From assembly GCF_004010195.1 (NCBI RefSeq), contig NC_057754.1:1095050-1150780 (forward strand): a DNA stretch of 55,731 nucleotides, in the 5' to 3' direction. The translations under genes were made by a program, and so were the position numbers. This document shows positions 1,883-45,745 of the stretch, one piece after another. Source of the stretch: Chiloscyllium plagiosum. Lineage: Eukaryota. The notes beneath the pieces are model-generated. The model saw only the letters and a list, made by a program, of their open reading frames with translations, did not search any database and had not been told where the DNA came from. Numbering within the stretch: position 1 is the stretch's first letter; the number at the start of each line of letters is the position of its first letter.

Positions 1883-2663
1883 GTAATGACCCTCATAAAC
1901 GTCTCCAGAGATAGAGAGAGAGACATAAAGGATACAGGGTGCAAAGAGAGAGAAAGAGATGCTACGTGAGGAGGACAGAGAGAGGGGTCTCCGAGGCCAG
2001 ACAGGGAGTCTGCGAGGGGAGGACAGAGAGAAATGGGGCCAGTAAGGAGTGGATGGGGAGCAGTGTTGTGGGGGTGGGGGGAGCGATGGGGATGAAGAGG
2101 GGGAGAGAGAGGCTAAAAATTCAGAGTCCACTTGACAATGGGTCAAAACCCTCTCCTCATGTAGTTTAAATGGCTTTTCCCTTTGGGATTTGATATTCTT
2201 GCAGTTCTGTCCTGATGGATGGATAAATAAGCTTTATCAGCATCCGTCTATTCTTTTAGCGATAGTCCAGTTCTGTGCTACCAAGTGACTCTTGGTTTGA
2301 CTGTGCACATTCCACCTGATACTGTGACAAATGGACTCAAATTCAACTTGTCTCACTCTCTGGCAAATGACAGGCCTGGTTTCAGGTTTGAGGATCAATA
2401 TTTTGACCATTCCTCCAAATTTTACATTTCACTATTAGAGTAAGCGTGGTCCCCATTCTCCTCCATATGTGCAACACGGTCCAGTGGTACAGGCCAACAC
2501 AGATAAGAGTGAAGTGATGCTTTCACACAGCAGGTTACTAAAGCTAATGACGCAAAGGTTCAGTTCAAAGGCAATTTGAAAAAAAGATTCGAAGGGCTGG
2601 GATTAAAAGGAGATGGGCAAAGAGCCAGAGAGTGGGATTAGAATAGACAGCTCAAGGAGATAA

Positions 2664-2755
2664 GAGCTGAAAATGCGTTGCTGGAAAAGCGCAGCAGGTC
2701 AGGCAGCATCCAAGGAGCAGGAGAATCGACGTTTCGGGCATGAGCCCTTCTTCAG
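2664..2755 (-). mobile_element. ~90-nt hammerhead-bearing short element with 16-bp target-site duplication
   Basis: CAGCTCAAGGAGATAA occurs at 2648-2663 and 2753-2768. The body is shared with copies at ~11475-11550 and 13188-13348. Confidence 0.75.
2724..2755 (-). ncRNA. Minimal hammerhead ribozyme core in a short repeat element
   Basis: Minus strand CTGAAGA-A-GGGC-TCAT-GCCC-GAAAC-GTC-GATT. Shows the CUGANGA box, a 4-bp stem II, the GAAA box and a GUC cleavage triplet. Stem I 5' arm is truncated at the insertion boundary. Confidence 0.65.
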
Positions 2756-3972
2756 CTCAAGGAGATAACCCCAGCACAATGGATGGAAAACCATTTTATT
2801 CAATTATGGGGATATTGGTGTTGCTGGCAAGGTAGGCATTTATTGTCCATCCTTCGTTGCCCCCAAGGTGCTAATGATACAACTCATGTCTTGCTAAAAC
2901 ACTTCAGGGGCATTTGAGAGTCAAACACGCTGGCGAGGACTGGAGCAGATTTCCTTCCCTCAAAGATATTTGTGAACTGCTCACATTTTTACGACAATCC
3001 CTCATGCTTCAAGGCCACTTTTACTGATAATGACCATTATTAATCCCAGATTTCCTTTTCAAACGGAATTCAAATTTGCAAGATGCCAAGTTGGGATTTG
3101 AACTCGGTTTCTCTGGACTATCAATGTATTTCCCATTGTTGGTAAATAGAAGTGTCGAAGTAAACGCTAAGCTGTTTGAAATGCACTAAAAGAAAGAGCC
3201 GAATTGTAGCTTCAAATTGTTCGGAATGATATTTTCATTTGCACTCTCTAAGACTCATCATATGTTTATGCGAATCATGGGATTTTATTTTAAGCTTTGC
3301 TGTCTTATTTCCTATTCAACCATCTGAGATCCACACTCTGCCTAAAGTTCAGTCACTCACGCCCACTGTATTGGCTCCGATGTGTACAGCTGCATATCCA
3401 GATGTAGCATCCTTCCAGCTAATACCTGTAACTGGCACCGTCTGCTGCACTGCCCCCAGTTTCCCCTCCTCTTCCCCCCCCCCCCCCATCCTGAGGTCAG
3501 GGACTGAGCACAGTGACAGCAGGTGAAGTCTGACCAGGGTTTTGTGTACACCTTTCAGCTACAGGCCCCTCAACGTCACGGCCGACTTCCCCTTCGCCTC
3601 ATTCAGTTCTGGTTTTTGTTATCCTTGTCTACGAGCTTTTAATGATCTCTTAGACCCTCCCCCACCCCCACCCCCACCCAAACACCTCTGCCCCTTGTTA
3701 CTTGCTGCATGAGCTGGTCTCAGTTGGGTGGCCATGGGGGTGTTTCTCGTGGCCGGGATTGAGATGGAGAGAGAGAGAGAGGGGTGAGGATATGGGATGG
3801 AGTCGGTGGTGGTGGGGGGGGGGGGTGGTGGTGAGGGGAGGTGTAGGGTTGGAGGCAGCAGGAACAAGGGTGGGGTAGCGAGGCCCTGGAACGTGTTGAA
3901 GCCTGGCAAAAGCAGCCGTATTTGTGTTGTTGGACCGTGTACGTGAGTAACCTAATCTCTATTCCTCCTCAG

Positions 3973-4038
3973 AAGAAGACACTCGATCTTTCACTGCACA
4001 CATCAGCAGCAGGGATTGGCAAAACCATTCCAACACCG
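3973..4038 (+). CDS. KAT5: KAT5 66-nt symmetric exon (linker region)
   Basis: cctcctcag|AAGAAG...ACACCG|gtactg, phase 0/0. Translates KKTLDLSLHTSAAGIGKTIPTP, resembling the GKTLP(I/T)P linker motif of vertebrate KAT5. Confidence 0.8.
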
Positions 4039-4809
4039 GTACTGCAGATTTCTTAATCCTGTTCCAAGAGGGCTGTCTCTACCTTCCAGTTGATGTTATT
4101 AATGACAGTCAGTGCAGTGCCTCTGTCCCAGCCACAGCCATTTAAATTGCTTGTTCATTTCTTTTGATGATTACTGGTCCCCATTGCCTCCACCCATCCC
4201 CCTCCCTCTCACCAGTCACCCTGGGCTTTATTGGAGGGCATCTTAATGACCTCCCTGACTCTGTACTCTGCCACCGCATCACTGCAGAGACTGGCAGAGG
4301 TTATTTGTCCCTCTTCATTCCTCCTCCTGATTGTTTACAGTTCAGCTGCATCATAGCTCCCTGCTAGTTTGGATAGAAGTTCACCAGCCTCTGATTGGGG
4401 GGGGGGGGTCCCACAGACTAGGCTTCCGTTCCCTCGAGTGTCGAAGGTTAAGGGGTGACTGCATCTCGGGCTTTGGGATGATTTGGTAAAACAAAACAGG
4501 GTCAATCATGGTGTTGGTGGTGAGCAGCCCCAGCCTGGGGTTGGTGAAAAGGATTCATTCGGGTCCGTGGAGGGGAATCTCCAGGCAGGAGCTGCCCACT
4601 GGGAAATGCCAAAACTGAGATTAATCTGTTTTTTTTTTCTTTGTAACTGGGGGGTGGGTTTGTGAAGTTGCAGGATCAAAGTGGGGAGACAGTTTAGTTG
4701 TGAGCTAACTGAATGAATGGTGGAATTTGGCTCACCGCATCTTCCAGTCACTATTTCCCGTCCTCCCTTCACCCATTAACAATGCCTGCCTGTTTTCCTG
4801 GCAGGAAGG

Positions 4810-5110
4810 GGTGGCACGGTGGCTCAGTGGTTAGCGTTGCTGCGTTACAGCACCAGGGTCCCAGGTTCGATTCCACCCTCCGGCAACTGTCTGTGTGGAA
4901 GTTGCACATTCTCCCCGTGGTCTGCGTGGGGTTCCTCCCACAATCCAAAGGTGTGAAGGTTCGATGGATTGGCTGTGCTACAGTGCCTTGCAGTGACCAG
5001 GGATGTGTAGGTGGATTGCCTGTGGGAAATGCAGGGATAGGGTAAGTCTAGGAGGGACCCTGTTAGAAGGGTCAGTATGGGCTTGGTGTACACATTGCAG
5101 GGATTCTATG
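4810..5110 (+). mobile_element. tRNA-derived SINE (HE1/V-SINE-like)
   Basis: A box tggctcagtgg, B box ggttcgattcc, central tgtgtggaagttgcacattctccccgtg. Related copies at 10749 and 43585. Confidence 0.8.
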
Positions 5111-5714
5111 AGTCTAACGACTTGGGACAGTGTTGGGGCGAGTTGGGGACAGAGTCATTGGATCGGTGTTAGGCTAGTATCCGTTAAGAGTTTAGAATAC
5201 TGAGAGATGATCTTATTGAAACATATAAAGTCCTGAGAGGATGTTTCCCGTCACAGGGGATGTCTAGAACAAGGAGACACACCCTCAGGATGGGAGGGGC
5301 TGGGGTCCATGGAGATGAGGAGGAATCCCTTGACTCCTAGGGTCATGAGTTTGTAGAATTCTCTTCCACCAAAGACGAGTGGAGTCTGGGCCACTAGGTA
5401 CATTCAAGACCGAGTTAGAGGTTTTGAATTGATGAGGGAATTCAGTGTGGGGTGGGGATCTCACCCCCGTCCCTGTGTGAGCTCTGGCCTCAGCTGACAT
5501 CTCCTTGATGATTGAGAGTGGGACTGACAAACTCGAGTCGGGGTAGTTTTAACCAACTGAAGTGCTCAGTTACCTGAAACAATGCCCTTAGTTTAATGGA
5601 TGAATCGCTTGCCTGCTTTGGGCCAGTCTGGCCTGGGTGAAGGGGACAGCATGTTAAAACTCTCCAGCTTCTCACTCCTGAACGCCACCCTGGTGAGTCT
5701 GGGTGTGATTACTC

Positions 5715-6090
5715 TTCCCTTCTGGATCACAAGGGTCTGAGTGTTAGCCCCATGCTGGAGGCCTGAGCCCCGTATTCCAGGTCAGCACTCCCAGCACAGT
5801 GCTGGGCCAGGAGAGCGTTGCCATTTTGGTGGGGGAGGGGTGTCCCTTTTATTTTTGATGGACCCTTCTCACGTGTAAGTGAAATAATCCACAATTGCTA
5901 TTTTGTAAAAGTGAGAGAGTTCACCCACTGCCCTCAGTGGTAATCCCTGTGTCCAGTGCTACAGATAGAGTATCTGGTCATTTATTTAATTGGGGGCTGT
6001 TGCTTTGTGTCTGGCTGCTGCATTTCCTTCTGTAAAGTCTGGAATTGGCTGCGGAGCTTTGAGACACCCTGAGGTGGGGAAAGGAGCTGG
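5715..6090 (+). mobile_element. Diverged SINE, possibly Deu-domain type
   Basis: Contains tatctggtcatt...tggctgctgcatttcc...gctttgagacaccctgagg motifs recalled from Deu/L2-tail SINEs. Highly diverged. Confidence 0.4.
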
Positions 6091-8766
6091 AGAAATAGGA
6101 ACCTTGCGTACCGTGTACAGTCCTGTTGTGTATTGTACTGTGTCTGTGAGTAACTTAGCAATGTTCAGTCGACTATGACCCACAAGCAGACTGGGCCCTC
6201 TGTGAATGGATTTCTGGATCATGGGGTTTTTTTTGCCATTACACAAGGCCAGCCACCCTGCTTTAACGTGGCAGCAACTCATCAGTAGTGTACTCCCTGG
6301 TGACAAGACCTTACCCCCTGGACCAACAGCCATTTGTTTCTGTGCCAGTGTGACTGCCACATTCCCTACATTGGTGGTCCTGCCCTGCAGTGGTGAAAGG
6401 GGCTTTTCTTTTTCATATAAATGCAAGTCTCTCACTGTGGGTAGGTGATGGGGGAAGAGACTATAATTACACCAGTATTGATGGGCGAGGGAGGGGGCTC
6501 TAATGAGAAAGCAGTGTTCCACTCCCCGTGCCTCCCCAATCCTTAGCTGGACGACATGTGTGTGCATGTGTTTGGTGAAGCCAGCACCGTATTTAGATGA
6601 GCCACTGTCAGAAACCCATTGCATAGTCTTCGGCTCAAGTTGCAACGGTAATGGGTCCCTGTACAACAGGTAGCCTGGTTCAGGTTAATAGCCGGGGGAG
6701 CAGCAACTCTTATAGCTCAGCTTGGGACTGTTAGTGCTTGAGTGACCAACTGATTCATCTAGCGGCTCCCCTCCTGCCTGAATGGAGCCTTCATGTCGAG
6801 AGAGTCCGACTTCCTGGTCCCTGGGCCGTGGAGTATCGGAATCCCACTGTCCACAATGTCTCAATGTCGATTTCCTAAGACACTTCACAGGAACGTAAAT
6901 CCCAGGCAGAATGAGGGCGATATCAGGGGCTCGCTCGGTGTAAAGGAGGAGAGAGAGCCAGAGAGGTTTACTGAGGGAGTTTCGCAGCTTGATGTCTCAG
7001 GCAGCTGAAGGCACCAGTGGTGGGCCGATGGAAAGCGGTGGATGCTCAAGAGGCTGGAGTTGGAGGAGCACAGAGATCTTGGAGGGTTGTAGGGGCTGGC
7101 GGAGGTGACAGCGATAGGGAGGAGGCCACAGTGGGGATTTGGAGACCAGCTGAGCATCAATCAGTCAGGCTGCCATTGGTCACTCTACCAGGATAACCTG
7201 TTGTGTCTCTTTCTCCCCCTTCTATGGTATTGTGTGGAGCAGGGCTTGCCTTACTTAGCCTCAAGTGCTAGTTTACAAAGGGTCTCTGTCGTGAAGATAC
7301 CAGACAGGACCAACAGCATCGAAAACGTCACAAAAAATTTGTTATCCGTGAGTTGCCTTTATACTTGTTTGACCGCTTGCTGGTGATTTGAGTCAGTTGT
7401 GATGCAATTTAACCCCTTTCTAGCCCCGTAGTACCCATGTTCTGGATTGTTACTCCCCGCCCCACACTCCCTCTCGGATCGGATGCCCAATACATCGGCA
7501 CCACAGCCACCCATTAAAATGTCTCCGTGGCTTTCTGTTGTGTTGGCGTGTGCTCTAGCCAGCACAACCACCGTACCCCCAAACCTTAGCGCCACAGTCT
7601 GGTATCTGACCTGTCATCCCTGGGTGCCAGCAAGTGTCCATCCAATACAAACCTGGTTTTATGATGGCAGCCCTGCAGGCCGGGGACAAAGGGGAGAAAG
7701 CTGCAGGGCCCTGGTGGGAGATCAGTCCTCTGCTCTTTGAGTTTAAATGTGTCCATCGTCCAAGGAGTGAGTGACGTTGGGTTATACTACTGTAACCTCT
7801 CCTCATGTTGGGTTAGATTACTGTATCTGCGTCCAGACCTGTGCTCTATGTCACACTGCCGCGCTACCTTTGGCCAGGCCGGCTGTCCACATTTACAATG
7901 GGAACTCCCTAAGTAAACATGTCACGGCGCAGCAGCACCTCCACTGGTGAGAGGGTGCAACCACAGCGTGACCTGTTTACATGGGAACCGCCCAGTTTGG
8001 GGTACTTTTGGCAGAATGTGCACAACGGTGGTGAATATATCTGATAGGAGACAGGCTGAATGGGGGAATAGAAATGTTTTGCAATGTTCCCAATGATTTG
8101 AGTGTATCTTTGCTTTAACTCCTTGCTTTCTGCAATCTGGTCAGGTGCGTTATAGACTGCAGCCCGGACGACCTTTCACTCTGGCAAACTTGCTGACTTT
8201 GCGTCCAACTTGAAATCCAATCTGCCCTTCCATCCTGTGTACCCCCACCCTGGCCCAGTGAGCCATCTGACTAGTCATGAGCTTGTCTCCGAATCCTTCA
8301 CCTTCCAATGGCAGTGTCACACACATCGATTAATAGAGACAAGATTCTCTTCAAACCCACTGCTTTCTAAGTCCTTTGCTTGCTGTCAGTCAGCAGGCGC
8401 TGTTACTACTGGGTATTCCTTAGTTCAGGAACAGGGGGCCATTCGACATCTCCAACCCCACCTTCCCCCCCCCCCCCCCCAACTTGGACCATTTATATGG
8501 GAATAAAGAAATCCTTCAGCCCCTTGAGCAAGCCCCCTCCTTGTGCCTATTATGTGGGACCAGCAGGAGGTCCACTTAGCCCCCTTCATACCTGTTAGCC
8601 CCGTATCACTCAATATCCTCACCCAACAGAAATCTCAAAATCTTACCCTTGAAAGGCTGGGTTATCCCTCAGCGAGCCTGTTGGTGGAAGGGGTGCAGTG
8701 GGAATGCAGGTCGAGGTTTCCAGATCCTTTGCTGATGTAGAATTGGGGAAATGGCTCCCAGTAGAC

Positions 8767-9266
8767 NNNNNNNNNNNNNNNNNNNNNNNNNNNNNNNNNN
8801 NNNNNNNNNNNNNNNNNNNNNNNNNNNNNNNNNNNNNNNNNNNNNNNNNNNNNNNNNNNNNNNNNNNNNNNNNNNNNNNNNNNNNNNNNNNNNNNNNNNN
8901 NNNNNNNNNNNNNNNNNNNNNNNNNNNNNNNNNNNNNNNNNNNNNNNNNNNNNNNNNNNNNNNNNNNNNNNNNNNNNNNNNNNNNNNNNNNNNNNNNNNN
9001 NNNNNNNNNNNNNNNNNNNNNNNNNNNNNNNNNNNNNNNNNNNNNNNNNNNNNNNNNNNNNNNNNNNNNNNNNNNNNNNNNNNNNNNNNNNNNNNNNNNN
9101 NNNNNNNNNNNNNNNNNNNNNNNNNNNNNNNNNNNNNNNNNNNNNNNNNNNNNNNNNNNNNNNNNNNNNNNNNNNNNNNNNNNNNNNNNNNNNNNNNNNN
9201 NNNNNNNNNNNNNNNNNNNNNNNNNNNNNNNNNNNNNNNNNNNNNNNNNNNNNNNNNNNNNNNNNN
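8767..9266. other. Assembly gap, exactly 500 N
   Basis: N run. The round size suggests an unsized scaffolding join. Confidence 0.98.
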
Positions 9267-10748: not shown

Positions 10749-11030
10749 GGCGTGCGACTCAGCAGTTAACACTGCTGCCTCAGTGCCAGGGACCCTAGTT
10801 CAATACAGCCTCGGGTGACTGTCTGTTTGGAGTTTGCACATTCTCCCCTCATGTTTGCGTGGGTTTCCTCCCACAATCCAAAGGTGTGCAGGTTAGAGTG
10901 GATTGGTCATACTAAATTGTCCTTCATGTTCAGGCTAGGTGGATTAGCTATGGGAAATACAGGGATCAATTAAGGAGGGTGACTCTCAATGGGCCAAATA
11001 GGCTCTGTCAGCACTGTAGGGATTCTATCA
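10749..11030 (+). mobile_element. tRNA-derived SINE (HE1/V-SINE-like)
   Basis: Same family as 4810-5110, with ggagtttgcacattctcccc, gggtttcctcccacaatccaaag and a ctgtagggattctat tail. Confidence 0.78.
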
Positions 11031-11329: not shown

Positions 11330-11552
11330 CCGTCCTTATGATCTATCCTACTTGTCCATCTTCCTTCCTACCTATCCACTCCACCCTCCTCTCTCTGACC
11401 CATTGCCATTGCCCCCACCTTCATCACCTATCTCACACTCCGCCACCTCTCCACCCCCTCGGCTCACACCCTCATTCCTGATGAAGGGCTTTTCCTGCTC
11501 CTCAGCTGCTGTCTGACCTGCTGTGCTTTTCCAGCACCACACTCTCGACTTG
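11330..11552 (+). mobile_element. Longer copy of the same short element family, hammerhead partly deleted
   Basis: A pyrimidine-rich leader is followed by cattcCTGATGAAGGGCTTT, with the GCCCGAAAC half missing, then the shared tail cctgctcctcagctgctgtctgacctgctgtgcttttccagca. Confidence 0.6.
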
Positions 11553-13110: not shown

Positions 13111-13187
13111 CTGCAGCTGGGACACTTGACCCAGTGTTCAAAGCTATAGAAAAATGTGACGTCTGCAGGTGCTGGAAATCAGAGTTG

Positions 13188-13348
13188 AGAGCGTGTTGCT
13201 GGGAGAGCACAGCAGGTCAGGCAGCATCCGAGCAGCAGGAGAATCAACGTTTCAGGCATAATCCTGATGAAGCGATTATGCCCAAAATGTCGATTCTCCT
13301 GCTCCTCAGATGCTGCCTGACCTGCTGTGCCTTCCCAGCACCACACTC
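13188..13348. mobile_element. Palindromic dimer of the hammerhead-bearing short element
   Basis: The left arm (~13188-13262) is the approximate reverse complement of the right arm (~13276-13348). A degenerate core CTGATGAAGCGATTATGCCCAAAATGTC sits at the centre. Confidence 0.7.
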
Positions 13349-13568
13349 ACTGCTCCAAAGCTGTAGACCCAAGATTCACCCAGAGACCAGAGAACATATT
13401 CTTGGCTCAGTGTCCAAGTAACGCCGCACTGTGGGAGAGTGGCCAGGCATTTTCCACATAAATTGCGTCCCGTTTGGTGCTCAGATGATGACTGTTTGTC
13501 AGGGTGGACTGAGCTCTGTCTGGTTTGAGTGTACAGTGTTGATTCACACATGTTTATCTCTGCTTCAG

Positions 13569-13665: not shown

Positions 13666-14176
13666 GTAAGTGCCAGCCACTGAGGCTGACAGAGATTCTT
13701 TTAAAGACTTTGTCTGTGCAGACTCTGGGAAACCAGCAGTGAGGCTTTTGCCTGTTGTCTGAACATTGAGTAGAGGGTAGGTTGGGTCAGGGAGTTGTTG
13801 AGGGATTCTCCTTACTTTACTGATTGTTCTCCCCAGTGATGAGGTCATTTCTATCGCTATGCATTGAAGCTTGCTGTGTTTAAATTGGCTGCCTTTTTCC
13901 TTCATAATCACAGGACCCACCGTTAAGATCCACTTCACAAAATGGCTGATTCTCACTACTCCCAGAAGGACTACAATAGTTCATTATTTAATTCAAAATG
14001 CAAAGTCCCTGACAGTCCCGACTGAGAATCTGGTTAACAGAGGACGCCAACAAGGGTCCGGTACTCAACAAATAAGTAAATTCTAATCACAAAGGAGCAG
14101 CTATGAACTATCACCACGTTCTGATGGCTGAAACCATGTTTTAAACCCCAGGCCATATATAGACAAGCACAACATG

Positions 14177-14711
14177 TTCAATTCTAGTTTCTCTCCTATC
14201 GGAAGGATGTTGGGAAACTTGAAAGGGTTCAGAAAAGACTCTCCAGGATGTTGCCAGGGTTGGAGGATCTGAGCTACAGGGAGAGGCTGAAAAGGCTGGG
14301 GCTGTTTTCCCTGGAGCATCGGAGGCTGAGGGGTGCCCTTATAGAGGCTTATAAAATCATGAGGGGCATGGATAGGGTAAATAGACAAAATCTTTTCCCT
14401 GAAGTCGGGGAGTACAGAACTAGAGGGCATAGGTTTAGGGTGAGAGGGGAAAGATATAAAAAGGGACCTAAGGGGCAACTGTTTCACACAGAGGGTGGTA
14501 CGTGTGTAGAATGAGCTGTCAGAGGAAGTGGTGGAGACTGGTACAATTACAGCATTTAAAAGGCATCTGGATGGTAAATGGATAGGAAGGGTTTAGAGGG
14601 ATATGGGCCGGGTGCTGGCAAATGGGACTAGATTAATTTAGGATATCTGGTTGGCATGGATGAGTCTGACTGAAGGGTCTGTTTCCGTGCTGTACATCTC
14701 TCTGACTCCAT
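14177..14711 (+). mobile_element. CR1-type LINE 3' fragment
   Basis: LSYRERLKRLGLFSLEHRRLRGALIEAYKIM...TRGH matches the CR1 ORF2 C-terminus. A 3' tail follows. Confidence 0.9.
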
Positions 14712-15499
14712 AATGTTTCTTTACCCTCTGCCCAAAAAAACCCCAAGGTAACACAGTTCCACAGCCTCATTGCACAGGCTCTGTTGAGAAGTTCCTTTTG
14801 CTCATCCACACTTTTGTTTTTCAACTGCCTTTCTCTAGGTTCTTCAGGAGGCACCGGGAGGTTGGTACACTAACTACAAAGTCTCTTTGTTATTCTTGAA
14901 GGCAACTGCTTACAGCAACTGATAGAAGGAGAAATAACTGGCTTTCTTCTGGATACCACACAGAGAGGGAGAAAGCCAGCTCGCCCTTCCAGCAGTCTGA
15001 AGGACTCTGTTAATTGTTAGCACCCACAATCTGCCCAGTAACCAATCAGAGAGCTGTCATTGGGCTGAGGACCTTTTACATCCAGACTGGTCACAGTTGT
15101 ACAAACCAACCCCAGTGACTTGTTGCCTGCCAAACCTCCCTTCCTGGTGCAGTGATGTCTACAAACACCACCCCTCCCAAACACACTCAGCATCTCAATT
15201 CCTTGTTTTGAAAAGGACAGCAATTCATTCCACACTCCTTGGTTCTTAAACAGTCTTCTTTTTTCACCCCCACCTTTGCCCAAAATCCAAAATACAGGAA
15301 ATAAAATGACATGGTCTTTACACCATGCTTCAAAACAAAGTCCTGCATTAGCTGTGAAATCCTGGGCTGGCTTTTAAAGGGACACTACCTATCTCTCCCT
15401 GACTGATCCGTGCTGAGATTAGGAAGATCCCCACAGGTCAGTCAACAGTTGGCGTTTTGAAGTGTGTGCATATTTACTATTTCTTTCCCTTCTGTTCAG

Positions 15500-15680
15500 T
15501 GGTGGAGACCCGTACCGTCTGTATAACCTGGATGTGTTCCAGTACGAGATATTTAACCCCATGGCTCTGTATGGTGCTGTACCTCTTCTGCTAGCGCACA
15601 ATCTCCGCAGGACTCTGGGCATCTTCTGGCTGAATGCTGCTGAGACTTGGGTAGACATCAGCTCCAACACAGCAGGCAAG
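15500..15680 (+). CDS. GANAB: GANAB exon 10
   Basis: tgttcag|T...AAG|gtgggt. Translates [60 protein letters not shown]. Confidence 0.97.
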
Positions 15681-16144
15681 GTGGGTACCATAGGCCCTCG
15701 CTTTCCAGAACTTCGGGTATTAATTGGGAGCCTTCCCTGTCTCTCCCAGCCCCCAACTCGCCATCCATCGAGGAGCTGCCTCAAACAGTCTGTGGGCCCT
15801 CCGTGTGGGTCGGAGGGAGTAGGATGGCAGAAGGACGCTGGGAAGTAGTTACGTGGTGATGCTGGAGGGGGTTCAGACTTTGGGAAAAGGAGGTTGTCTA
15901 CTCTGACCGTTCTTCCTGGGGATTGTAAAGAGTTGTTGGATTCTGTGTGTCTGTGTAGAGATGAAGGTGATTGAGGATCACTGAGGGGTTCTGTAACAGG
16001 AGAAAGGCCCCCCCCCCCCCCCCACCAGGTTCAAATGGATGCTCAGCATAAGACCATTTTGGAGCAAGACTAGAATAGGCAGAGGCCATTCAGCCCCTCC
16101 AGCCTGGTCTAGCACTCAGGTCATGCCTCCATTTTTTTTTAAGG

Positions 16145-16495
16145 TAGGCAATGGCCTAGTGCTATTATTGCGAGACTATTAATCCAGGGATCCAAGTAAT
16201 GTTCGGGAGACCCAGGTTCAAATCCCACCACAGCAAATGGAGGCATTTGAATTCAATAAAACAGTCTGGAGTTGTGGGTCTAATGGATGTTGCGACAGCA
16301 TAGTCTATTGTCAGGAAAGCCCATCTGGCTCATTAATGTCCTTTCGGGAAAGAGATCTGTCATCTTTATCTGGTCTGGCCTGTATGTGACTCCAGACCCA
16401 CAGCAATGTGGTTGACACTGAACTGCCCTCTGGGCAATTAGGGATGGGCCATAAATGCTGGTCCAGCCAGTGACACCCACATGATGTTAAGGCAA
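16145..16495 (+). mobile_element. tRNA-derived SINE with LINE-derived 3' tail
   Basis: A-box-like tggcctagtg and B box ggttcaaatccc. The tail gggcaattagggatgggccataaatgctgg matches the LINE tail at ~13040-13095. Confidence 0.7.
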
Positions 16496-16607
16496 TAAAC
16501 CCCCCCCGCCCCCCTCATATCTGAGAGATCCTAGACTATTGCCTGGTGAATAAAGACTGCCTGTGGTTCAGTCGTTCTGGTTCTCACTGACCTCAATCCC
16601 TCCACAG

Positions 16608-16761
16608 ACTCTGTTTGGGAAGATGCTGGATTATGTTCAGGGGGCGAATGAAATTCCACAGACTGACGTGCGCTGGATTTCTGAGAGTGGGATCATCGAT
16701 GTTTTCCTGCTCCTGGGCCCTTCTCCGTTTGATGTCTTCAGACAGTACACCTCACTGACAG
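16608..16761 (+). CDS. GANAB: GANAB exon 11
   Basis: ccacag|ACT...ACAG|gtaagt. Translates [51 protein letters not shown](G). Confidence 0.97.
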
Positions 16762-17134
16762 GTAAGTCAGCCACAGTGGGTGAGGGTTTGACTGGGTTAC
16801 TGCTGGTATCCTGGGGTGAATGCTCAGACAGGATCTCTGGAACGTTGCCAGTGCCTTACTGATATGTCTGTGACTGTCATAGGAACAGGAAGGGGCACTG
16901 TCTGTGTCCCTCGAGCATGTTCTTGTGTGTGAACATGGGCCTCCTGACAACACCTCTGAATGATCTGGCCTCCCACAGCAGAATGTAACTCCTTCCTCTT
17001 TGGGAGCTTCTAATAGAACATTTCCTGTGTCCGCGTCCTCTTTGTACCTTTATTTACGTCTTGAATTCCCATCACCACAGCCCTGATTCCTGTGCTCATT
17101 TTAACGCTCCCTATTAGCTCATTAGCAAGTGATA

Positions 17135-17365
17135 GAAAGAGGACAGATGTGAGAGGTAGTTTGTTTACTCAGGGAGTAGTAGGGGGCGTGGAAAGCAGTG
17201 CCTGCAGCAGTCATAGACTCGCCAACCTTCAGGGCATTTAAATGGTCATTGGATAGGCGTATGGATGAGAATGGAACAGTGTAGGACAGATGGGCTTCAG
17301 ATTGGTTTCACAGGTCAGCATGACATCGAGGACCAAAGGACCTGTATTGCGCTGTAATGTTCTAA
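17135..17365 (+). mobile_element. Short CR1-type 3' end fragment
   Basis: Contains tttgtttactcagggagtagt...gcatttaaatggtcattggatagg...ggacctgtattgcgctgtaatgttcta. Confidence 0.6.
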
Positions 17366-18401: not shown

Positions 18402-18504
18402 GTAAGGGAGCGGGAATGAGGAACGCTGGGGGATAATGGGTTAGCGGTTGTTCTTTGGAAAGCTGTACTGTCTGTGGATCACTAACTCCATGTCACCCCT
18501 CCAG

Positions 18505-31055: not shown

Positions 31056-34000
31056 AGAGAGAACGCGAGAGAACGCGAGAGAGGAGAGAGAGAACGCGAG
31101 AGAGGAGAGAGAGAACGGAGAGAGGAGGAGAGAGAACGCGAGAGAGGAGAGAGAGAACGCGAGAGAGGAGAGAGAGAACGCGAGAGAGGAGAGAGAGAAC
31201 GCGAGAGAGGAGAGAGAGAACGCGAGAGAGGAGAGAGAGAACGCGAGAGAGGAGAGAGAGAACGCGAGAGAGGAGAGAGAGAACGCGAGAGAGGAGAGAG
31301 AGAACGCGAGAGAGGAGAGAGAGAACGCGAGAGAGGAGAGAGAGAACGCGAGAGAGGAGAGAGAGAACGCGAGAGAGGAGAGAGAGAACGCGAGAGAGGA
31401 GAGAGAGAACGCGAGAGAGGAGAGAGAGAACGCGAGAGAGGAGAGAGAGAACGCGAGAGAGGAGAGAGAGAACGCGAGAGAGGAGAGAGAGAACGCGAGA
31501 GAGGAGAGAGAGAACGCGAGAGAGGAGAGAGAGAACGCGAGAGAGGAGAGAGAGAACGCGAGAGAGGAGAGAGAGAACGCGAGAGAGGAGAGAGAGAACG
31601 CGAGAGAGGAGAGAGAGAACGCGAGAGAGGAGAGAGAGAACGCGAGAGAGGAGAGAGAGAACGCGAGAGAGGAGAGAGAGAACGCGAGAGAGGAGAGAGA
31701 GAACGCGAGAGAGGAGAGAGAGAACGCGAGAGAGGAGAGAGAGAACGCGAGAGAGGAGAGAGAGAACGCGAGAGAGGAGAGAGAGAACGCGAGAGAGGAG
31801 AGAGAGAACGCGAGAGAGGAGAGAGAGAACGCGAGAGAGGAGAGAGAGAACGCGAGAGAGGAGAGAGAGAACGCGAGAGAGGAGAGAGAGAACGCGAGAG
31901 AGGAGAGAGAGAACGCGAGAGAGGAGAGAGAGAACGCGAGAGAGGAGAGAGAGAACGCGAGAGAGGAGAGAGAGAACGCGAGAGAGGAGAGAGAGAACGC
32001 GAGAGAGGAGAGAGAGAACGCGAGAGAGGAGAGAGAGAACGCGAGAGAGGAGAGAGAGAACGCGAGAGAGGAGAGAGAGAACGCGAGAGAGGAGAGAGAG
32101 AACGCGAGAGAGGAGAGAGAGAACGCGAGAGAGGAGAGAGAGAACGCGAGAGAGGAGAGAGAGAACGCGAGAGAGGAGAGAGAGAACGCGAGAGAGGAGA
32201 GAGAGAACGCGAGAGAGGAGAGAGAGAACGCGAGAGAGGAGAGAGAGAACGCGAGAGAGGAGAGAGAGAACGCGAGAGAGGAGAGAGAGAACGCGAGAGA
32301 GGAGAGAGAGAACGCGAGAGAGGAGAGAGAGAACGCGAGAGAGGAGAGAGAGAACGCGAGAGAGGAGAGAGAGAACGCGAGAGAGGAGAGAGAGAACGCG
32401 AGAGAGGAGAGAGAGAACGCGAGAGAGGAGAGAGAGAACGCGAGAGAGGAGAGAGAGAACGCGAGAGAGGAGAGAGAGAACGCGAGAGAGGAGAGAGAGA
32501 ACGCGAGAGAGGAGAGAGAGAACGCGAGAGAGGAGAGAGAGAACGCGAGAGAGGAGAGAGAGAACGCGAGAGAGGAGAGAGAGAACGCGAGAGAGGAGAG
32601 AGAGAACGCGAGAGAGGAGAGAGAGAACGCGAGAGAGGAGAGAGAGAACGCGAGAGAGGAGAGAGAGAACGCGAGAGAGGAGAGAGAGAACGCGAGAGAG
32701 GAGAGAGAGAACGCGAGAGAGGAGAGAGAGAACGCGAGAGAGGAGAGAGAGAACGCGAGAGAGGAGAGAGAGAACGCGAGAGAGGAGAGAGAGAACGCGA
32801 GAGAGGAGAGAGAGAACGCGAGAGAGGAGAGAGAGAACGCGAGAGAGGAGAGAGAGAACGCGAGAGAGGAGAGAGAGAACGCGAGAGAGGAGAGAGAGAA
32901 CGCGAGAGAGGAGAGAGAGAACGCGAGAGAGGAGAGAGAGAACGCGAGAGAGGAGAGAGAGAACGCGAGAGAGGAGAGAGAGAACGCGAGAGAGGAGAGA
33001 GAGAACGCGAGAGAGGAGAGAGAGAACGCGAGAGAGGAGAGAGAGAACGCGAGAGAGGAGAGAGAGAACGCGAGAGAGGAGAGAGAGAACGCGAGAGAGG
33101 AGAGAGAGAACGCGAGAGAGGAGAGAGAGAACGCGAGAGAGGAGAGAGAGAACGCGAGAGAGGAGAGAGAGAACGCGAGAGAGGAGAGAGAGAACGCGAG
33201 AGAGGAGAGAGAGAACGCGAGAGAGGAGAGAGAGAACGCGAGAGAGGAGAGAGAGAACGCGAGAGAGGAGAGAGAGAACGCGAGAGAGGAGAGAGAGAAC
33301 GCGAGAGAGGAGAGAGAGAACGCGAGAGAGGAGAGAGAGAACGCGAGAGAGGAGAGAGAGAACGCGAGAGAGGAGAGAGAGAACGCGAGAGAGGAGAGAG
33401 AGAACGCGAGAGAGGAGAGAGAGAACGCGAGAGAGGAGAGAGAGAACGCGAGAGAGGAGAGAGAGAACGCGAGAGAGGAGAGAGAGAACGCGAGAGAGGA
33501 GAGAGAGAACGCGAGAGAGGAGAGAGAGAACGCGAGAGAGGAGAGAGAGAACGCGAGAGAGGAGAGAGAGAACGCGAGAGAGGAGAGAGAGAACGCGAGA
33601 GAGGAGAGAGAGAACGCGAGAGAGGAGAGAGAGAACGCGAGAGAGGAGAGAGAGAACGCGAGAGAGGAGAGAGAGAACGCGAGAGAGGAGAGAGAGAACG
33701 CGAGAGAGGAGAGAGAGAACGCGAGAGAGGAGAGAGAGAACGCGAGAGAGGAGAGAGAGAACGCGAGAGAGGAGAGAGAGAACGCGAGAGAGGAGAGAGA
33801 GAACGCGAGAGAGGAGAGAGAGAACGCGAGAGAGGAGAGAGAGAACGCGAGAGAGGAGAGAGAGAACGCGAGAGAGGAGAGAGAGAACGCGAGAGAGGAG
33901 AGAGAGAACGCGAGAGAGGAGAGAGAGAACGCGAGAGAGGAGAGAGAGAACGCGAGAGAGGAGAGAGAGAACGCGAGAGAGGAGAGAGAGAACGCGAGAG

Positions 34001-34159
34001 AGGAGAGAGAGAACGCGAGAGAGGAGAGAGAGAACGCGAGAGAGGAGAGAGAGAACGCGAGAGAGGAGAGAGAGAACGCGAGAGAGGAGAGAGAGAACGC
34101 GAGAGAGGAGAGAGCGAGAGAGAGAAAGAGAGAACGCGAGAGAGAGAGAGAACGCGAGA
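31056..34159. repeat. ~3.1-kb 21-bp purine-rich minisatellite, ~145 copies, GANAB intron 5
   Basis: Unit GAGAGAACGCGAGAGAGGAGA, essentially invariant, with 7-aa periodicity in the ORF track. Confidence 0.98.
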
Positions 34160-36699: not shown

Positions 36700-36845
36700 T
36701 ACAAATTCTGCAGAAACTCAGCAGGTCTGGCATCGTCCATGGAGACAAGAAACAGTCAACATTTCGAGCCTGATATGACTTCTTCAAAACTGAAGCATTA
36801 ACAGAGTTTCTGTAGCACTTTGTGTTTGTTTGAGGTCTCCAGCAT
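36700..36845 (-). mobile_element. Decayed hammerhead-type short element
   Basis: Minus strand TTGAAGAAGTCATATCAGGCTCGAAATGTTGAC followed by a gccagacctgctgagtttctgcag tail. The core is mutated. Confidence 0.45.
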
Positions 36846-37639: not shown

Positions 37640-37800
37640 GAAGTCACACGACACCAGGTTACAGTTCAACAGGAAGTGACTTCTCCTGACAAAGGAGCAG
37701 CGCTCCGAAAGCTTGCAATTTCAAATAAACCCATTGGACCATTACCTGGTAACTTCTGATTTTGCCCACCCAGTCCAACACCAACACCAACACCTCCATG
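37640..37800 (+). mobile_element. Copy of the 45625-45745 family with mutated hammerhead core
   Basis: CTGACAAAGGAGCAGCGCTCCGAAAGCTT followed by aaataaacccattggaccattacctgg...cccagtccaacacc. A partial inverted arm lies upstream. Confidence 0.6.
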
Positions 37801-37874
37801 CCATGGTCTCAAAATATTTGAGCAAACCACCAGACAGCTGTTCCAGAATGCAAGGTGGGAAAACATTATAAAAA

Positions 37875-38445
37875 AACTCTTTATTCTGTACCTAATCCTG
37901 TGCTATCCCTGTCCTGGGAGGATCTGATGGGGACAGTGTTGAGAGACTTTAACTTCAGTTTAAAAGGATAGGAATAGATTTCCTCTGCATCTTTACCCCC
38001 ATGCTATACCTAGCCTGGTACAGTTTGTTGCAGACAGTGTTGAGTTATTGTTATTTTCAACCTAAAAGAGTAAAGAAAGCTTTACTCTGTACCTGGTCCA
38101 CTGTTATCCCTGTCCTCTGAGTGTTTGACGGGACAGTTTAAGTTCAGTGTTCAGCTTAAAACTCTAAGGGAGCTTCAACTTCAGTTTAAAAGGGTAGAAG
38201 GAGCTTTACTCTTAGCTAACATAGTGTTGTTCCTGTCCTGCAAATGTTTGATTGGGACAGTGTACACAGAGCTTCACTCTGTACCGTACCTACCTATGGG
38301 GACAGTATAGTTTGTGACTTTCTGCTTGAGAGAGGAGAGATAGCTTTACTCTGCATCTAATCCCGTCCTGGGAGCGTTTGATGGGGATGGTGTTGAGGAA
38401 GTTTTAGTTTCTGATTAAAAAAAGGAGTACCCTGTATTTGACCCC
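37875..38445. repeat. Degenerate tandem repeat, GANAB intron 4
   Basis: Recurring ctttactctgta...ccctgtcctgggag..tttgatggggacagtgt units. Confidence 0.7.
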
Positions 38446-38450
38446 AGACT

Positions 38451-38548
38451 GAAACAGAAATGGCTGGAAAAGCTCACCATGTCTGACAGTATCCGTGGAG
38501 AGAAATCAGGGTTAACGTTTCAGGGAGAGCGACCCTGCCTCAGAACTG
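38451..38548 (-). mobile_element. Decayed hammerhead-type short element
   Basis: Minus strand AGTT-CTGAGGC-AGGGTCGCTCTCCCT-GAAAC-GTT-AAC followed by a cagacatggtgagcttttccagc tail. Confidence 0.5.
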
Positions 38549-38709
38549 CATTCGACCCCATGTTGATTTAATTCCCGAAACCAATCGTCAGTTTAAAATT
38601 CACATTCAATAAATAGGTACCTCAATTCCTTCAACAGCTTCACAAAAAGGAGTGTACGTATCGGAATACTGTGGAGTAAGGAACCAAAACAAGTCGGCTA
38701 GCAACTTAC

Positions 38710-39763: not shown

Positions 39764-40423
39764 ATGAAAGTGGAGTTGCAGGTAGATAGGATAGTGAAGG
39801 CAGCGTTTGGTATGCTTTCCTTTATTGGTCAGAGTATTGAGTACAGGAGTTGGGAGGTCATGTTGTGACTGTACAGGACGTTGGTTAGGCCACTGTTGGA
39901 ATATTGTGTACAATTCTGGTCTCTTTTCTACGGAAAGATGTTGTGAAACTTGAAAGGGTTCAGAAAAGATTTACAAGGATGTTGCCAGGGTTGGAGGATC
40001 TGAGCTATAGGGAGAGGCTGAACAGGCTGGGGCTGTTTTCCCTGGAGCGTTGGAGGCTGAGGGGTGACCTTATAGAGGTTTACAAAATTATGAGGGGCAT
40101 GGATAGGATAAATAGGCAAAGTCTTTTCCCTTGGGTCGGGGAGTCCAGAACTAGAGGGCATAGGTTTAGGGTGAGAGGGGAAAGGTATAAAAGGCACCTA
40201 AGGGGCAACTTTTTTCACGCAGAGGGTGTACGTGCCAGAGAAAGTGATGGAGGCTGGTACAATTGCAACATTTAAGAGGCATTTGGATGGGTCTCTGAAT
40301 AGGAAGGGTTTGGAGGGATATGGGCCGGGTGCTGGCAGGTGGGACTAGATTGGGTTGGGATATCTGGTCGGCATGGATGGGTTGGACCGAAGGGTCTGTT
40401 TCCATACTGTACATCTTTATGAC
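39764..40423 (+). mobile_element. CR1-type LINE 3' fragment
   Basis: LERVQKRFTRMLPGLEDLSYRERLNRLGLFSLERWRLRGDLIEVYKIM, plus 3' tail. Confidence 0.92.
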
Positions 40424-40545
40424 ATAACACCAGGATATTGTCCAGCAGGTTCAATTGGAAGTACAGGCTTTCAAATAAACTGTTGGACCATAACCTGGTG
40501 TGGTGTGGATTTTTAACTTTGTCCATCCCAGTCCAACACCTCTAC
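40424..40545. mobile_element. Palindromic remnant of the 45625-45745 family without ribozyme core
   Basis: acaccaggatattgtccagcagg...tgttggaccataacctggtgt form imperfect inverted arms, followed by the tail cccagtccaacacc. Confidence 0.55.
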
Positions 40546-40555
40546 ATTGTGGAGC

Positions 40556-41163
40556 AGAGTCACAGAGATGTACATCACAGATACAGACCTTTCAATCCAA
40601 CTCGTCCATGCTAACCAGATATCTGAAATTAATCTAGTCCCTTTTGCCAGCACCTGGCCCATATCCCTCTAAGTGCCCTGTCTGTTCATATACCCATCCA
40701 AATGCCTCTTAAATGTTGCAATTGTACCAGCCTCCACCACATCCTCTGGCAGCTCATTCCATACACGTACCACCCTCTGCCTGAAAAAGTTTCCCCTTAG
40801 GTTCCTTTTAAATCTTTCCCCTCTCTTCCTAAACCTATGCCCTCTACTTCTGGACACCCCCACCCCAGGGAAAACACCTTGACTATTTACCCTATCCATG
40901 CCCCTCATGATTTCATAAATCTCTATAAGGTCACTCCTCAGCCTCCGACGCTCCAGGGAAAACAGCCCCAGCCTGTTCAGCCTCTCCCTGTAGCTCAAAC
41001 CCTCCAACCCTGGCAACATCCTTGCAAATTTTTTCTGAACCATTTCAAGTTTTACAACATCCTTCCTACAGGAAGGAGACCAGAATTGCACACAATATTC
41101 CAAAAGTGGCCTAACCAATGTCCTGTACAGCCGCAACATGACCTCCCAACTCCTATACTCAAT
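40556..41163 (-). mobile_element. CR1-type LINE 3' fragment, inverted relative to 39764-40423
   Basis: LYRTLVRPLLEYCVQFWSP...NFFRQRVVRVWNELPEDVVEA...FKRHLD. Confidence 0.92.
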
Positions 41164-43584: not shown

Positions 43585-43905
43585 CATAGAATCACTACAA
43601 TGTGGAAACAGGCCATTCGACCCAATGTGTCCTCACCGACCCACTGAAGAGTAACTCACCCAGATCCATTCCCCTATCCTATTATTCTACATTTACTCCC
43701 AACTAATGCACCTAAGCTACACATCCCTGAACACTATGGACAATTTACATTGACCAATTTATCTAACCTGCACATTTTTAGACTGTGGGAGGAAACCCAC
43801 ACAGACGCAGGGAGAATGTGCAACTTCCACACAATTGCCCAAGGCTGGAATTGAACCCAGGTTCCAGGCGCTGTGTGGCAGCAGTGCTAACCACTGAGCC
43901 ATCAC
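43585..43905 (-). mobile_element. tRNA-derived SINE (HE1/V-SINE-like)
   Basis: Reverse complement reads tggctcagtggttagcactgctgcc...ggttcaattcc...gttgcacattctccc. The tail ends in tgtagtgattctatg. Confidence 0.8.
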
Positions 43906-44625: not shown

Positions 44626-44724
44626 GTGGGGGAGGGGCCTGTCTGTGGGGGAGGGGCCTGTCTGTGGGGGAGGGGCCTGTGGGGTGGGGGAGGGGCCTGT
44701 CTGTGGGGGAGGGGGAGGGGCCTG
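44626..44724. repeat. G-rich ~19-bp repeat running into a gap, GANAB intron 1
   Basis: (GTGGGGGAGGGGCCTGTCT)n. Confidence 0.85.
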
Positions 44725-44941
44725 CCGCCTCCAGGCCGCTCCTGTTGCTAACCTCCTGGCGGCAGGAAATCCTGCTCCCCCTGAGCCCGGCTCCATTAGA
44801 AACCCCTGATAACGCACAAGTCCGTGTCCCCACGCGGAAGGAGCGAGGTTCTGGTCTCTCTCCCTACATTTGCTCCTCCCCGTCCGGGACCTACGGACAA
44901 CAGACTCAAAGGGAAACCCTAAAGCCCAGGACCCGCTTCAC

Positions 44942-44967
44942 CTCAGCCTCAGCTCCACCGCCGCCAT
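44942..44967 (-). CDS. GANAB: GANAB exon 1 (coding part)
   Basis: Minus strand AAGATGGCGGCGGTGGAGCTGAGGCTGAG|gtgaag gives MAAVELRL(S). It lies in a CpG-rich promoter, and its phase-2 end fits exon 2. Confidence 0.85.
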
Positions 44968-45305
44968 CTTGGCCGAGCTCGAGCCGCCCGCGTGACGTCA
45001 GCGCGCCCCTGAACTTTACCCGCGGACAAGCCCCGCCCCTCAGCCGGCACGGAGCGCGGACACGTCAGCTCAATCTGATTGGCATGCGCGGGCAGGGGCG
45101 GGGTCACAGGCAAGACGCGGAGCATCACGGGTGGCGGGCTCACGGCGATTTGATTGACACGACGTCGTACGTCACTGGGAACGGGGTCAGAGCGGGGTGA
45201 TTGACTTGGCTCTGTACGTCTACCGGGGCGTGGTCAGATCTCGGTGATTGACATGTTCCTGTGCTTCACTGGGGGCGGGGTCACGGCCAGGGGTGATTGA
45301 CAGCT
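44961..45305 (-). promoter_or_regulatory. GANAB CpG-rich promoter with no obvious TATA box
   Basis: YY1-like CCGCCATCTT at 44961-44970 over the ATG. TGACGTCA at 44993-45000, GACACGTCA at 45059-45067, CCAAT box (ATTGG) at 45078-45082. GC boxes near 45030, 45095 and 45271, plus four TGATTGAC motifs. Confidence 0.8.
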
Positions 45306-45624
45306 CAGACAGAGTCATTGCAGGAGGCTGTTCAGCCCATCCTGTCCAGACCTGCTGGGCCAAATGGTCTGTTTCCACACTACAAGGATTCTATGCTGGG
45401 CATCTCAGAGTATTTTCTAGAGCCCCTGTAACTCAATCTGCCCCTGCTTTACATCCATAACAAAAAGGAACAGGAATAGGCCACTGGAGTTTGCTCCACC
45501 ATTCAATAGGATCATGGCTGATCCAACATTCCTCACTCTCACTTTGCTGCCCCTTCGCCATGACCCTCAATCCCCCGCCTGATCCAGAGTCTATTAATCT
45601 CAGCCATAAATATCCACCATGACT

Positions 45625-45745
45625 TGGAGGTGCGGGTGTTTGACTGGGGTGGACGAGGTTAAAAAATCACACCACACCAGGTTATAGTCCAACAGGTTCA
45701 TTTGGAAGCACTAGCTTTCGGAGCGACGCTCCTTCATCAGGTGGC
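45625..45745 (-). mobile_element. Short hammerhead-bearing element (Penelope-type terminal repeat)
   Basis: Intact core followed by cttccaaatgaacctgttggactataacctggtgtggtgtgattttttaacc...cagtcaaacacc, shared with the 37640 and 40424 copies. Confidence 0.7.
45709..45743 (-). ncRNA. Minimal type I hammerhead core
   Basis: Minus strand CAC-CTGATGA-A-GGAGC-GTC-GCTCC-GAAA-GC-TA-GTG. Stem I is CAC/GTG, stem II is a perfect 5 bp, loop III has palindromic AGCT, and the NUH triplet is CUA. Confidence 0.72.

Follow-up and report, generated by a model that had tools for sequence, protein, structure and literature searches.

The window analysed here, a stretch of 55,731 nucleotides of Chiloscyllium plagiosum contig NC_057754.1 (positions 1,095,050 to 1,150,780), carries hammerhead-like motifs at nine sites, which belong to three repeat families, designated A (with an older branch, A2), B and C, and which amount to eight insertions, as the sites near 29230 and 29545 form opposite arms of a single insertion. 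A preliminary description of this DNA had listed at least nine hammerheads or remnants; a motif is present at all nine sites, but the complete core of CUGANGA, an extra base, a paired stem II, GAAA, the palindromic pair and NUH is found at only four (C3 at 2755, 29247 and 45740 on the minus strand, and at 29531 on the plus strand). Two further sites show one core mismatch, namely the loss of G8 at 37686 (plus strand) and of A9 at 38543 (minus strand), and the remaining three are broken: the half with GAAA and the cut site is deleted at 11478 (plus), G12 is lost and stem II disrupted at 13264 (plus), and C3 is lost and stem II disrupted at 36787 (minus). A 3-bp stem I is kept in the complete cores at 29247, 29531 and 45740. 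It was correctly stated that one extra nucleotide always follows CTGANGA (nine of nine sites; A in families A, A2 and B, U in family C), and the stem II sequences named (GGGC/GCCC, GGAGC/GCTCC and GTCACCT/AGGGGAC) are right, that of family C having an internal A-G mismatch. The order of CUGANGA and GAAA..NUH is that of a type I hammerhead, as in the minimal hammerheads of Penelope-like elements (PLEs). The covariation check that had been proposed gave a divided outcome, as stem II differs between families A, B and C and still pairs, whereas within family A no compensatory change, and no non-CpG stem II variant at 4% or above, occurs among the variants listed.

A strict scan returned five matches in 43,706 non-tandem bases, four of them at the named sites, against a mean of 0.7 and a maximum of 4 in 200 dinucleotide shuffles; the fifth, at 40941, lies inside a LINE and was set aside as a chance match. 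A relaxed minimal-hammerhead descriptor, composed after the sites had been seen, gave six matches, all at named sites and all with G10.1 paired and positions 15.2/16.2 complementary, where 60 Markov simulations gave 0.03 on average. The motifs do not occur by chance. An Rfam search of the window yielded no match even at E<=1, and single-strand folding revealed no unusual stability, with z < -2 in one of nine motifs, where it reflects a fold-back junction hairpin and not the ribozyme fold.

Family A is represented by a 92-nt stub at 2664-2755 (minus strand), which starts at the hammerhead C3 and retains the complete core with a 4-bp stem II, cleavage being predicted between 2728 and 2727. At the junction, target DNA has replaced the 5' strand of stem I. 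A target-site duplication at 2648-2663 is identical at 16/16 positions to 2753-2768, three bases being common with the first bases of the element. The copy at 11470-11550 (plus strand) contains the 5' half of the core (C3 at 11478) and is preceded by approximately 170-190 nt of C/T-rich DNA, which may be the 3' UTR of the element and of which only the last 8 bases are confirmed family sequence. A fold-back consists of a long arm at 13151-13263 (minus), which begins in loop II and has a 38-nt tail beyond the short arm, and a short arm at 13264-13353 (plus), which begins at C3; it is flanked by a 12/14 target duplication (13137-13150 and 13354-13367). Two A2 stubs on the minus strand complete the set: the first, at 36700-36792 with approximate boundaries, is mutated at position 3 (36787) and has a 5-bp stem I with one G-U, and the second, at 38447-38547 with its core at 38543, is flanked by a 12/14 target duplication (38433-38446 and 38547-38560). 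No ORF link emerged for this family, as a phmmer search with a 35-aa frame of the family A tail matched four proteins, all unrelated repeat proteins, and a word search with a 51-aa frame of the 11478 copy retained none of 28 candidates at E<=0.01, which is weak evidence.

Family B comprises a fold-back at 37641-37807, in which a short decayed minus arm (approximately 37641-37680) is joined to a plus arm whose core at 37686 keeps an intact 5-bp stem II despite the loss of G8, and a minus-strand stub at 45616-45743 (approximate boundaries) with a complete core (C3 at 45740), a 5-bp stem II, a 3-bp stem I and the cut triplet CUA. A tail-only fold-back pair without CUGANGA, absent from the preliminary list, lies at 40419-40540 between two LINE 3' ends. 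The arms are unequal in both the fold-back and the tail-only pair. No target duplication was found for the stub or for any other family B insertion in the window; an 8-bp match flanking 40419-40540 was rejected because it belongs to the LINE ends. The notion that the LINE arms at 39836-41163 had been duplicated by the fold-back between them was likewise discarded, as they are 87.7% alike and thus no closer to one another than to a third copy (88.7% and 86.7%).

The family C insertion is the one with coding content. Its main arm, at 29341-29595 (plus strand), carries ~43 codons from the end of a PLE endonuclease domain, a TATAAA at 29478 and a hammerhead core with C3 at 29531 and a predicted cut after 29564, and the AUG at 29537 is formed by A9-U9.1-G10.1 of the core. 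The long arm of the fold-back, at 29133-29340 (minus strand), carries a complete core (C3 at 29247) with G-U at 10.1/11.1, an AUG at 29241 whose reading frame corresponds to the N-terminus of a reverse transcriptase (RT) protein, and a 50-nt A/C-rich tail; a 7-bp target duplication (29126-29132 and 29594-29600, 7/7) encloses the insert. At its C-terminus the ORF matches an RT-bearing protein of Chiloscyllium punctatum, P0002 (82% over 72 aa), and at its N-terminus a second protein of that species, P0022 (89% over 56 aa, the match running through the hammerhead). As the window has only the ends of the ORF, the RT assignment is taken from P0022, which passes the Pfam cut-off for RVT_1, and the GIY-YIG assignment from P0051, which passes the cut-offs for both RVT_1 and GIY-YIG and is 46% identical over 428 aa to P0002, whose own RVT_1 score is slightly below the cut-off. 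Shark matches to the ORF range from 61 to 93% and flatworm matches from about 43 to 56%. Because the end of an ORF meets the start of an ORF at the hammerhead, family C has a pseudo-LTR layout, and it is a truncated piece of a protein-coding, endonuclease-bearing (EN+) PLE. The predicted cut lies 28 nt downstream of the AUG and would separate the AUG from the ORF; the long arm ends 109 nt after the AUG and the short arm at +59.

The eight named insertions share an anatomy across families. Three are head-to-head fold-backs with one longer arm, to which the tail-only pair is to be added. Target duplications of 7-16 bp (16/16, 12/14, 12/14 and 7/7) accompany four insertions, the chance of a match of at least 12/14 near the junctions being 0.0006, and none was found for the other four. 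The 5' ends differ among the insertions of all three families, and in six of the eight one arm starts within about 8 nt of C3. On account of the unequal fold-back arms and/or target duplications, the insertions are interpreted as PLE insertion products. Two accounts of EN+ PLEs describe insertions with an inverted truncated copy and a 30-40 bp tail (Arkhipova et al., 2013, PMC3846280; Craig et al., 2021, PMC8557442), and the shark insertions share with these units the head-to-head inverted truncated copy, the tail on one arm, the variable target duplications and the microhomology junctions. The inverted truncated arm with a tail is seen in both A and B, and the duplications, as between these two, in A only. 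However, the shark units measure only 90-460 nt and lack an ORF except in family C, and the family C tail of 50 nt exceeds the published 30-40.

Family A is very abundant, with 86,383 contigs in set X1 and 64,900 in set X3 matching the stretch 2664-2755, counted as distinct contigs with junction contigs represented in excess. Its variation is mostly confined to CpGs and loop positions, and the core-region DNA variants at 6-17% are, among the variants listed, CpG transitions or changes at N7 or in loop II. The genomic copies form two 3' end classes, near 2679 and past 2656, and show opposite-strand joints at 2755; upstream, agreement drops to 0.37-0.48 beyond about 8 common bases. None of the 18 classes of loose ends listed falls at the cut site. 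A few contigs have same-strand joints going back 40-77, and short tandems thus exist elsewhere in the genome. When a 19-base motif of family A was used to scan metagenomes, 81 loci were obtained, which were dismissed as chance since the longest BLAST match to the window elements was 40 nt and centred on the motif. Family A sequence occurs in poly(A) RNA on both strands, and 2,828 reads of RNA set X21, a poly(A) single-cell library and hence a poor test of cleavage, show no pile of read beginnings or ends at the cut site; a second RNA set, X22, contributed no matching read. A-to-G changes at the catalytic A14 and A15.1 reach 9-10% of the RNA reads of one strand against less than 0.5% in DNA; the strand direction agrees with editing in 10 of 14 cases (p=0.18, not significant).

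Taken together, the insertions are in all probability short, 5'-truncated end-pieces of PLEs in which the hammerhead is a passenger, a reading that is shown for family C and likely for families A and B. The preliminary description was sound in recognising PLE-type minimal type I hammerheads with a palindromic 15.2/16.2 pair, and several families at high copy number, but its assignment of these families to a non-autonomous, SINE-like class is not supported: family C is coding, the 5' ends vary, and the fold-backs and duplications point to PLE insertion products. For families A and B, an origin as non-autonomous, SINE-like PLE derivatives, in which PLE proteins acting in trans would mobilise short master RNAs starting immediately upstream of the hammerhead, is unlikely. 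A short RNA of this kind would also yield 5' ends that cluster upstream of C3, within about 8 nt of it, and the abundance of family A and the fruitless searches with its 35-aa and 51-aa frames point the same way; moreover, pseudo-LTRs are able to drive integration in trans (PMC3846280), and vertebrate non-LTR retrozymes have been proposed as PLE derivatives (bioRxiv 10.64898/2026.07.22.740005). However, the junctions vary by copy, as some arms start in loop II or near GAAA and others at C3; upstream of the 11478 copy the flank is intact and family-like, and this copy may extend further; and family C displays the same anatomy and is coding. In addition, no near-identical pair of A or of B copies is present in the window (about 72-91% in local matches), and neither a tRNA-derived head nor an Rfam match was detected, although decayed heads may escape detection.

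An origin as non-LTR retrozymes, in which tandem hammerhead repeats self-cleave as dimers and circularise, is highly improbable. The shark motifs resemble these elements (Cervera and De la Pena, 2020, PMC7229834; Li et al., 2026, bioRxiv 10.64898/2026.07.22.740005) in the type I hammerhead, the palindromic helix III position, the non-coding sequence and the kinship to PLE pseudo-LTRs, and such elements have been reported in one chondrichthyan genome. However, non-LTR retrozymes are defined by tandem units that each contain a hammerhead, whereas none of the eight insertions is tandem on one strand, no array was detected by Tandem Repeats Finder at any named site, and the fold-back arms are mutually antisense. 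Cleavage as cis-dimers finds no support at these loci, as no insertion carries two hammerheads on one strand. A helix III dimer was not the lowest-energy form in any of three cofolds of two copies, and the absence of a pile of RNA ends described above argues weakly in the same direction. Domestication of some copies as regulators of a host pre-mRNA is scarcely credible; copies are indeed present in the vicinity of glycoside hydrolase 31 exons and of sequence upstream of INTS5, and family A sequence is found in poly(A) RNA of both strands, but six of the nine sites lack a complete core with stems, orientations are mixed, and the variation resembles CpG decay.

A model can be constructed in which the PLE transcript would contain a pseudo-LTR, where the hammerhead leads into the ORF start. 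The GIY-YIG endonuclease would cut the target in staggered fashion, giving rise to the 7-16 bp duplications, and reverse transcription would begin inside the RNA at either of two sites some 40-50 nt apart downstream of the hammerhead, the two start sites accounting for one arm being short and the other long and tailed, while copying from both nicks may generate the head-to-head fold-backs. Copying would mostly halt early, often within a few bases of the hammerhead core on its upstream side, and the copies would afterwards decay neutrally, chiefly at CpGs. The stubs would then probably be made by the endonuclease and reverse transcriptase of the element itself on a template of uncut RNA, and the ribozyme likely acts, if at all, in an active master RNA with the help of a protein or partner, not in the genomic stubs. 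A more speculative scheme, put forward here as a long shot, holds that a short template RNA truly starts at the hammerhead; the shark PLE RT might prime just downstream of this 5' hammerhead and run off the RNA start, thereby mass-producing ribozyme stubs of ~100 nt, with families A and B as ORF-less parasites at very high copy number, and the host might edit fold-back RNAs (A-to-G at A14 and A15.1) and so disarm the ribozyme.

The minimal hammerheads of metazoan PLEs, comprising CUGANGAH, a helix II closed by G-C, GAAA, the palindromic pair and NUH with a short helix I, have been described as several families per genome, mostly as single motifs in truncated PLEs and occasionally as opposite-strand pairs 100-700 bp apart (Cervera and De la Pena, 2014, PMC4209133). 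The shark motifs fit the consensus in Fig. S3 of that study, and the opposite-strand pair of family C is 284 bp apart; stem I is weaker in family A than the published 4-5 bp. Family C is close to the Clonorchis motif of the same figure, and the nearest relatives of its ORF outside sharks include flatworm proteins. Nine motifs within 55.7 kb, and distinct contigs numbering tens of thousands for one family, may be set against ~4,000-9,000 motifs per genome in coelacanth and Xenopus, these counts not being like-for-like. In the Anolis Poseidon element PAc (Frangieh et al., 2024, PMC11167929), the ORF opens at stem II, within the hammerhead and past C3 and G8, the cut falls 26 nt after the start, and RT starts at +111-118, two start sites producing a tail. 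Family C resembles PAc in that its ORF starts inside the hammerhead, with the cut 28 rather than 26 nt after the AUG, and in that the insert 3' ends lie at two internal sites, with an A/C-rich tail near +110; a lack of RNA reads ending at the cut site is likewise common to the shark data and PAc. It differs in the length of the tail, 50 nt against 30-40, and in the short arm, which ends at +59. Families A and B have no AUG in the core because of the A at position 9.1.

Cartilaginous fish are absent from the species in Table S1 and Fig. S3 of PMC4209133, and a search of a limited literature collection found no paper on shark PLE hammerheads. As PLE minimal hammerheads have been known since 2014, the cartilaginous-fish families missed by Rfam constitute a modest addition. 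Family C provides a second example of an AUG built from the hammerhead A9, the extra base and G10.1, and its insert ends at two internal sites lend the Anolis in vitro model support from a distant vertebrate. The huge number of natural insertions would make this genome suited to mapping the starts and stops of PLE reverse transcription, and to asking if these ribozymes are ever active in vivo.

All nine hammerhead-like sites named in the preliminary description proved real by alignment, core inspection, and strict and relaxed scans, and their reading as hammerheads of Penelope-like element (PLE) type was correct, the motif layout being that of the PLE minimal-hammerhead consensus in PMC4209133. 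Alignment sorts the sites, designated by C3 position and strand, into family A (2755-, 11478+, and 13264+), an older branch, A2, related to A and with common sequence 3′ of the ribozyme (36787- and 38543-), family B (37686+ and 45740-), and family C (29247- and 29531+); because both C sites are arms of a single insertion, the nine sites amount to eight insertions. Of the nine, four retain a complete core and a paired stem II, and three of these also keep a 3-bp stem I; at two sites a single core position is mismatched, and the remaining three are more degraded. A strict hammerhead scan gave five hits versus 0.7 expected (200 shuffles, none of which reached five), and a relaxed descriptor gave six, all at named sites, versus 0.03 in 60 simulations. 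One of the five strict hits, lying inside a LINE, was rejected as a chance match, and Rfam recovered none of the nine sites.

Family C is, as judged from its translated sequence, coding PLE DNA. The center and right arm of the insertion at 29133-29595 translate to the C-terminus of P0002, an RT-bearing protein of the shark Chiloscyllium punctatum (82% over 72 aa), which in turn matches, at 46% over 428 aa, a second protein that passes the Pfam cut-offs for RVT_1 and GIY-YIG. The family C core contains an AUG, formed by A9, the extra U, and G10.1 (at 29537 and 29241), and the frame that it opens matches the N-terminus of P0022, another C. punctatum RT protein, at 89% over 56 aa, a stretch that takes in 18 codons before the core AUG. 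As the end and the start of the ORF thus meet at the hammerhead, family C represents a PLE pseudo-LTR. The annotated start of P0022 is an upstream in-frame AUG overlapping a TATAAA at 29478, and, if this element promotes transcription, no AUG in family C RNA would precede the core AUG. The predicted cut falls 28 nt past the core AUG, and the long and short arms end at +109 and +59 nt; for Anolis PAc, the published report places the ORF start at stem II, the cut 26 nt past that start, and the onset of reverse transcription at +111-118, with a tail defined by two start sites (PMC11167929). Within the window, a repeat-encoded peptide matched C. punctatum proteins at 86-95% for four of five candidates, which points to a bamboo shark or a near relative as the likely host. 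The annotated ends of P0001 and P0003, Chiloscyllium isoforms of a 5′-nucleotidase-domain protein and of MAP3K7, consist of family C endonuclease sequence, and are either exonized PLE pieces or annotation artifacts. The closest named non-shark relatives of the family C ORF (P0007-P0122) are mostly from parasitic flatworms, at about 43-56% identity, and this affinity is accompanied by a hammerhead close to the Clonorchis PLE motif (PMC4209133, Fig. S3); the likeness may come from the sampling of databases, from ancient common descent, or from transfer.

Three of the eight insertions are head-to-head fold-backs with one longer arm (tail lengths: A, 38 nt; C, 50 nt), as is an additional, tail-only pair of family B outside the named sites, at 40419-40540. 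At 39836-41163, two LINE 3′ ends, which we take to be CR1-like, stand tail-to-tail, and this tail-only pair occupies the exact space separating them; the LINE arms share 87.7% identity, no closer than either is to a third copy at 14175-14708, and are thus likely to be separate insertions. Target duplications accompany four of the eight insertions (16/16, 12/14, 12/14, and 7/7), the chance of a 12/14 duplication near a junction being 0.0006 and the 7-mer, weak alone, being supported by its presence at both junctions; none was found at 11478, 36787, 37686, or 45740. The pattern described for endonuclease-bearing PLEs is the same, with truncated copies in inverted orientation, duplications of variable length, and a tail of 30-40 bp at one end (PMC8557442; PMC3846280). 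Hammerheads in truncated PLEs are of an already known kind, single or opposite-strand minimal examples having been described in 2014 (PMC4209133). No report of shark PLE hammerheads was among the papers listed by literature searches, and the retrozyme families of the one chondrichthyan examined in a further study may bear on novelty (bioRxiv 10.64898/2026.07.22.740005).

Copies of family A elsewhere in the genome were sampled by mapping to the copy at 2560-2860 only. Matching contigs numbered 86,383 in DNA run X1 and 64,900 in X3, nearly all on the 92-nt element, totals which show family A to be very abundant and are not a copy number; the flanks were covered by single contigs at depth 4-6. 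To the right of this copy, 2802-2856 is a further small repeat (summed depth about 2,000-3,600 in DNA contigs). Loose ends form two 3′-end classes, near 2679 and at a tail past 2656 (0.67-0.86 agreement), with none at the cut site, 2727, among the 18 rows listed. Opposite-strand joints occur at 2755, and about 8 bases upstream of C3 are common before agreement drops to 0.37-0.48, likewise in uncollapsed RNA reads. A few contigs carry same-strand joints going back 40-77, so that at other genomic sites the A end also occurs in short, incomplete tandem form. In the core, those DNA variants that reach 6-12% represent CpG transitions (at 11.1, 12, 15.2, 16.2, 17, and 1.1), the remainder falling at N7 (17%) and in loop II (up to 65%), a distribution that points to neutral decay over master variants differing at free positions. 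Stem covariation thus exists between families and was not seen within A, where no non-CpG stem II change occurs among the variants listed.

RNA run X21, a poly(A) single-cell library, yielded 2,828 reads for the family A copy, on both strands and with no pile of read beginnings or ends; RNA run X22 gave none. Relative to DNA, X21 shows an excess of A>G and T>C rows (median ratio 5.5 in 14 rows versus 1.7 in 25 others, p=0.003). This comparison is between different samples, uses rows chosen by a 4% threshold, and may be governed by a few of the copies that are expressed. Both catalytic adenines, A14 and A15.1 (2728-2735), read as G at 9-10% in one orientation, 1-2% in the other, and <0.5% in DNA; however, the overall strand test was not significant (10/14 rows, p=0.18). 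This gives no more than a lead to possible A-to-I editing of family A transcripts. Published work describes a lizard Penelope, as well as palindromic repeats, as heavily edited (PMC5625713).

The window is animal DNA with four N gaps and large, almost perfectly homogeneous tandem arrays (99-100% matches) at 19035-20638 (24-nt unit), 31067-34159 (21-nt), and 48090-51943 (324-nt), whose uniformity is either genuine or an artifact of assembly. Exons of a glycoside hydrolase 31 gene, presumably GANAB, occupy about 15400-22500 on the forward strand, and a single-exon INTS5 frame of 986 codons occupies 52063-55023 on the reverse; we assume the two genes to be neighbors in other vertebrates. A dispersed repeat of about 200 nt, SINE-like in size and without a tRNA or Rfam match, has three copies that are 75-77% alike (4820-5038, 10758-10966, and 43717-43901); the label "SINE" for other repeats here is likewise our assumption.

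The coding sequence of C, the fold-backs, the tails, and the duplications favor PLE insertion debris over the non-autonomous, SINE-like families proposed in the preliminary description. That A and B form a true non-autonomous family is unlikely; such a family would accord with two protein searches using A-derived frames, which tied A to no ORF (blank or chance matches), and with the positions of arm starts, which in six of eight insertions lie no more than about 8 nt upstream of C3 and would fit early termination at structure, transcript-start run-off, or a short dedicated master RNA. A metagenome scan returned chance matches only (81/81 loci). None of the eight insertions is tandem, which argues against their being retrozymes and, with the antisense partner arm that would preclude a cis-dimer in fold-backs, against the dimeric cleavage once suggested; by base-pairing with the fold-back ribozyme, that arm would probably also block it.

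In published accounts of PLE insertion, the endonuclease nicks both strands, priming is internal at two sites, and uncut RNA is the main template, cleavage being low and dimer- or protein-assisted (PMC11167929; PMC4209133). The present analysis shows the motifs, the families, the coding origin of C, the fold-backs, tails, and duplications, and the abundance and CpG-dominated variation of A. On a mechanism of this kind, families A and B would, like C, derive from autonomous PLEs, and the genomic stubs would be inactive as ribozymes. The feature is real, and its best reading is as ordinary debris of PLE insertion.
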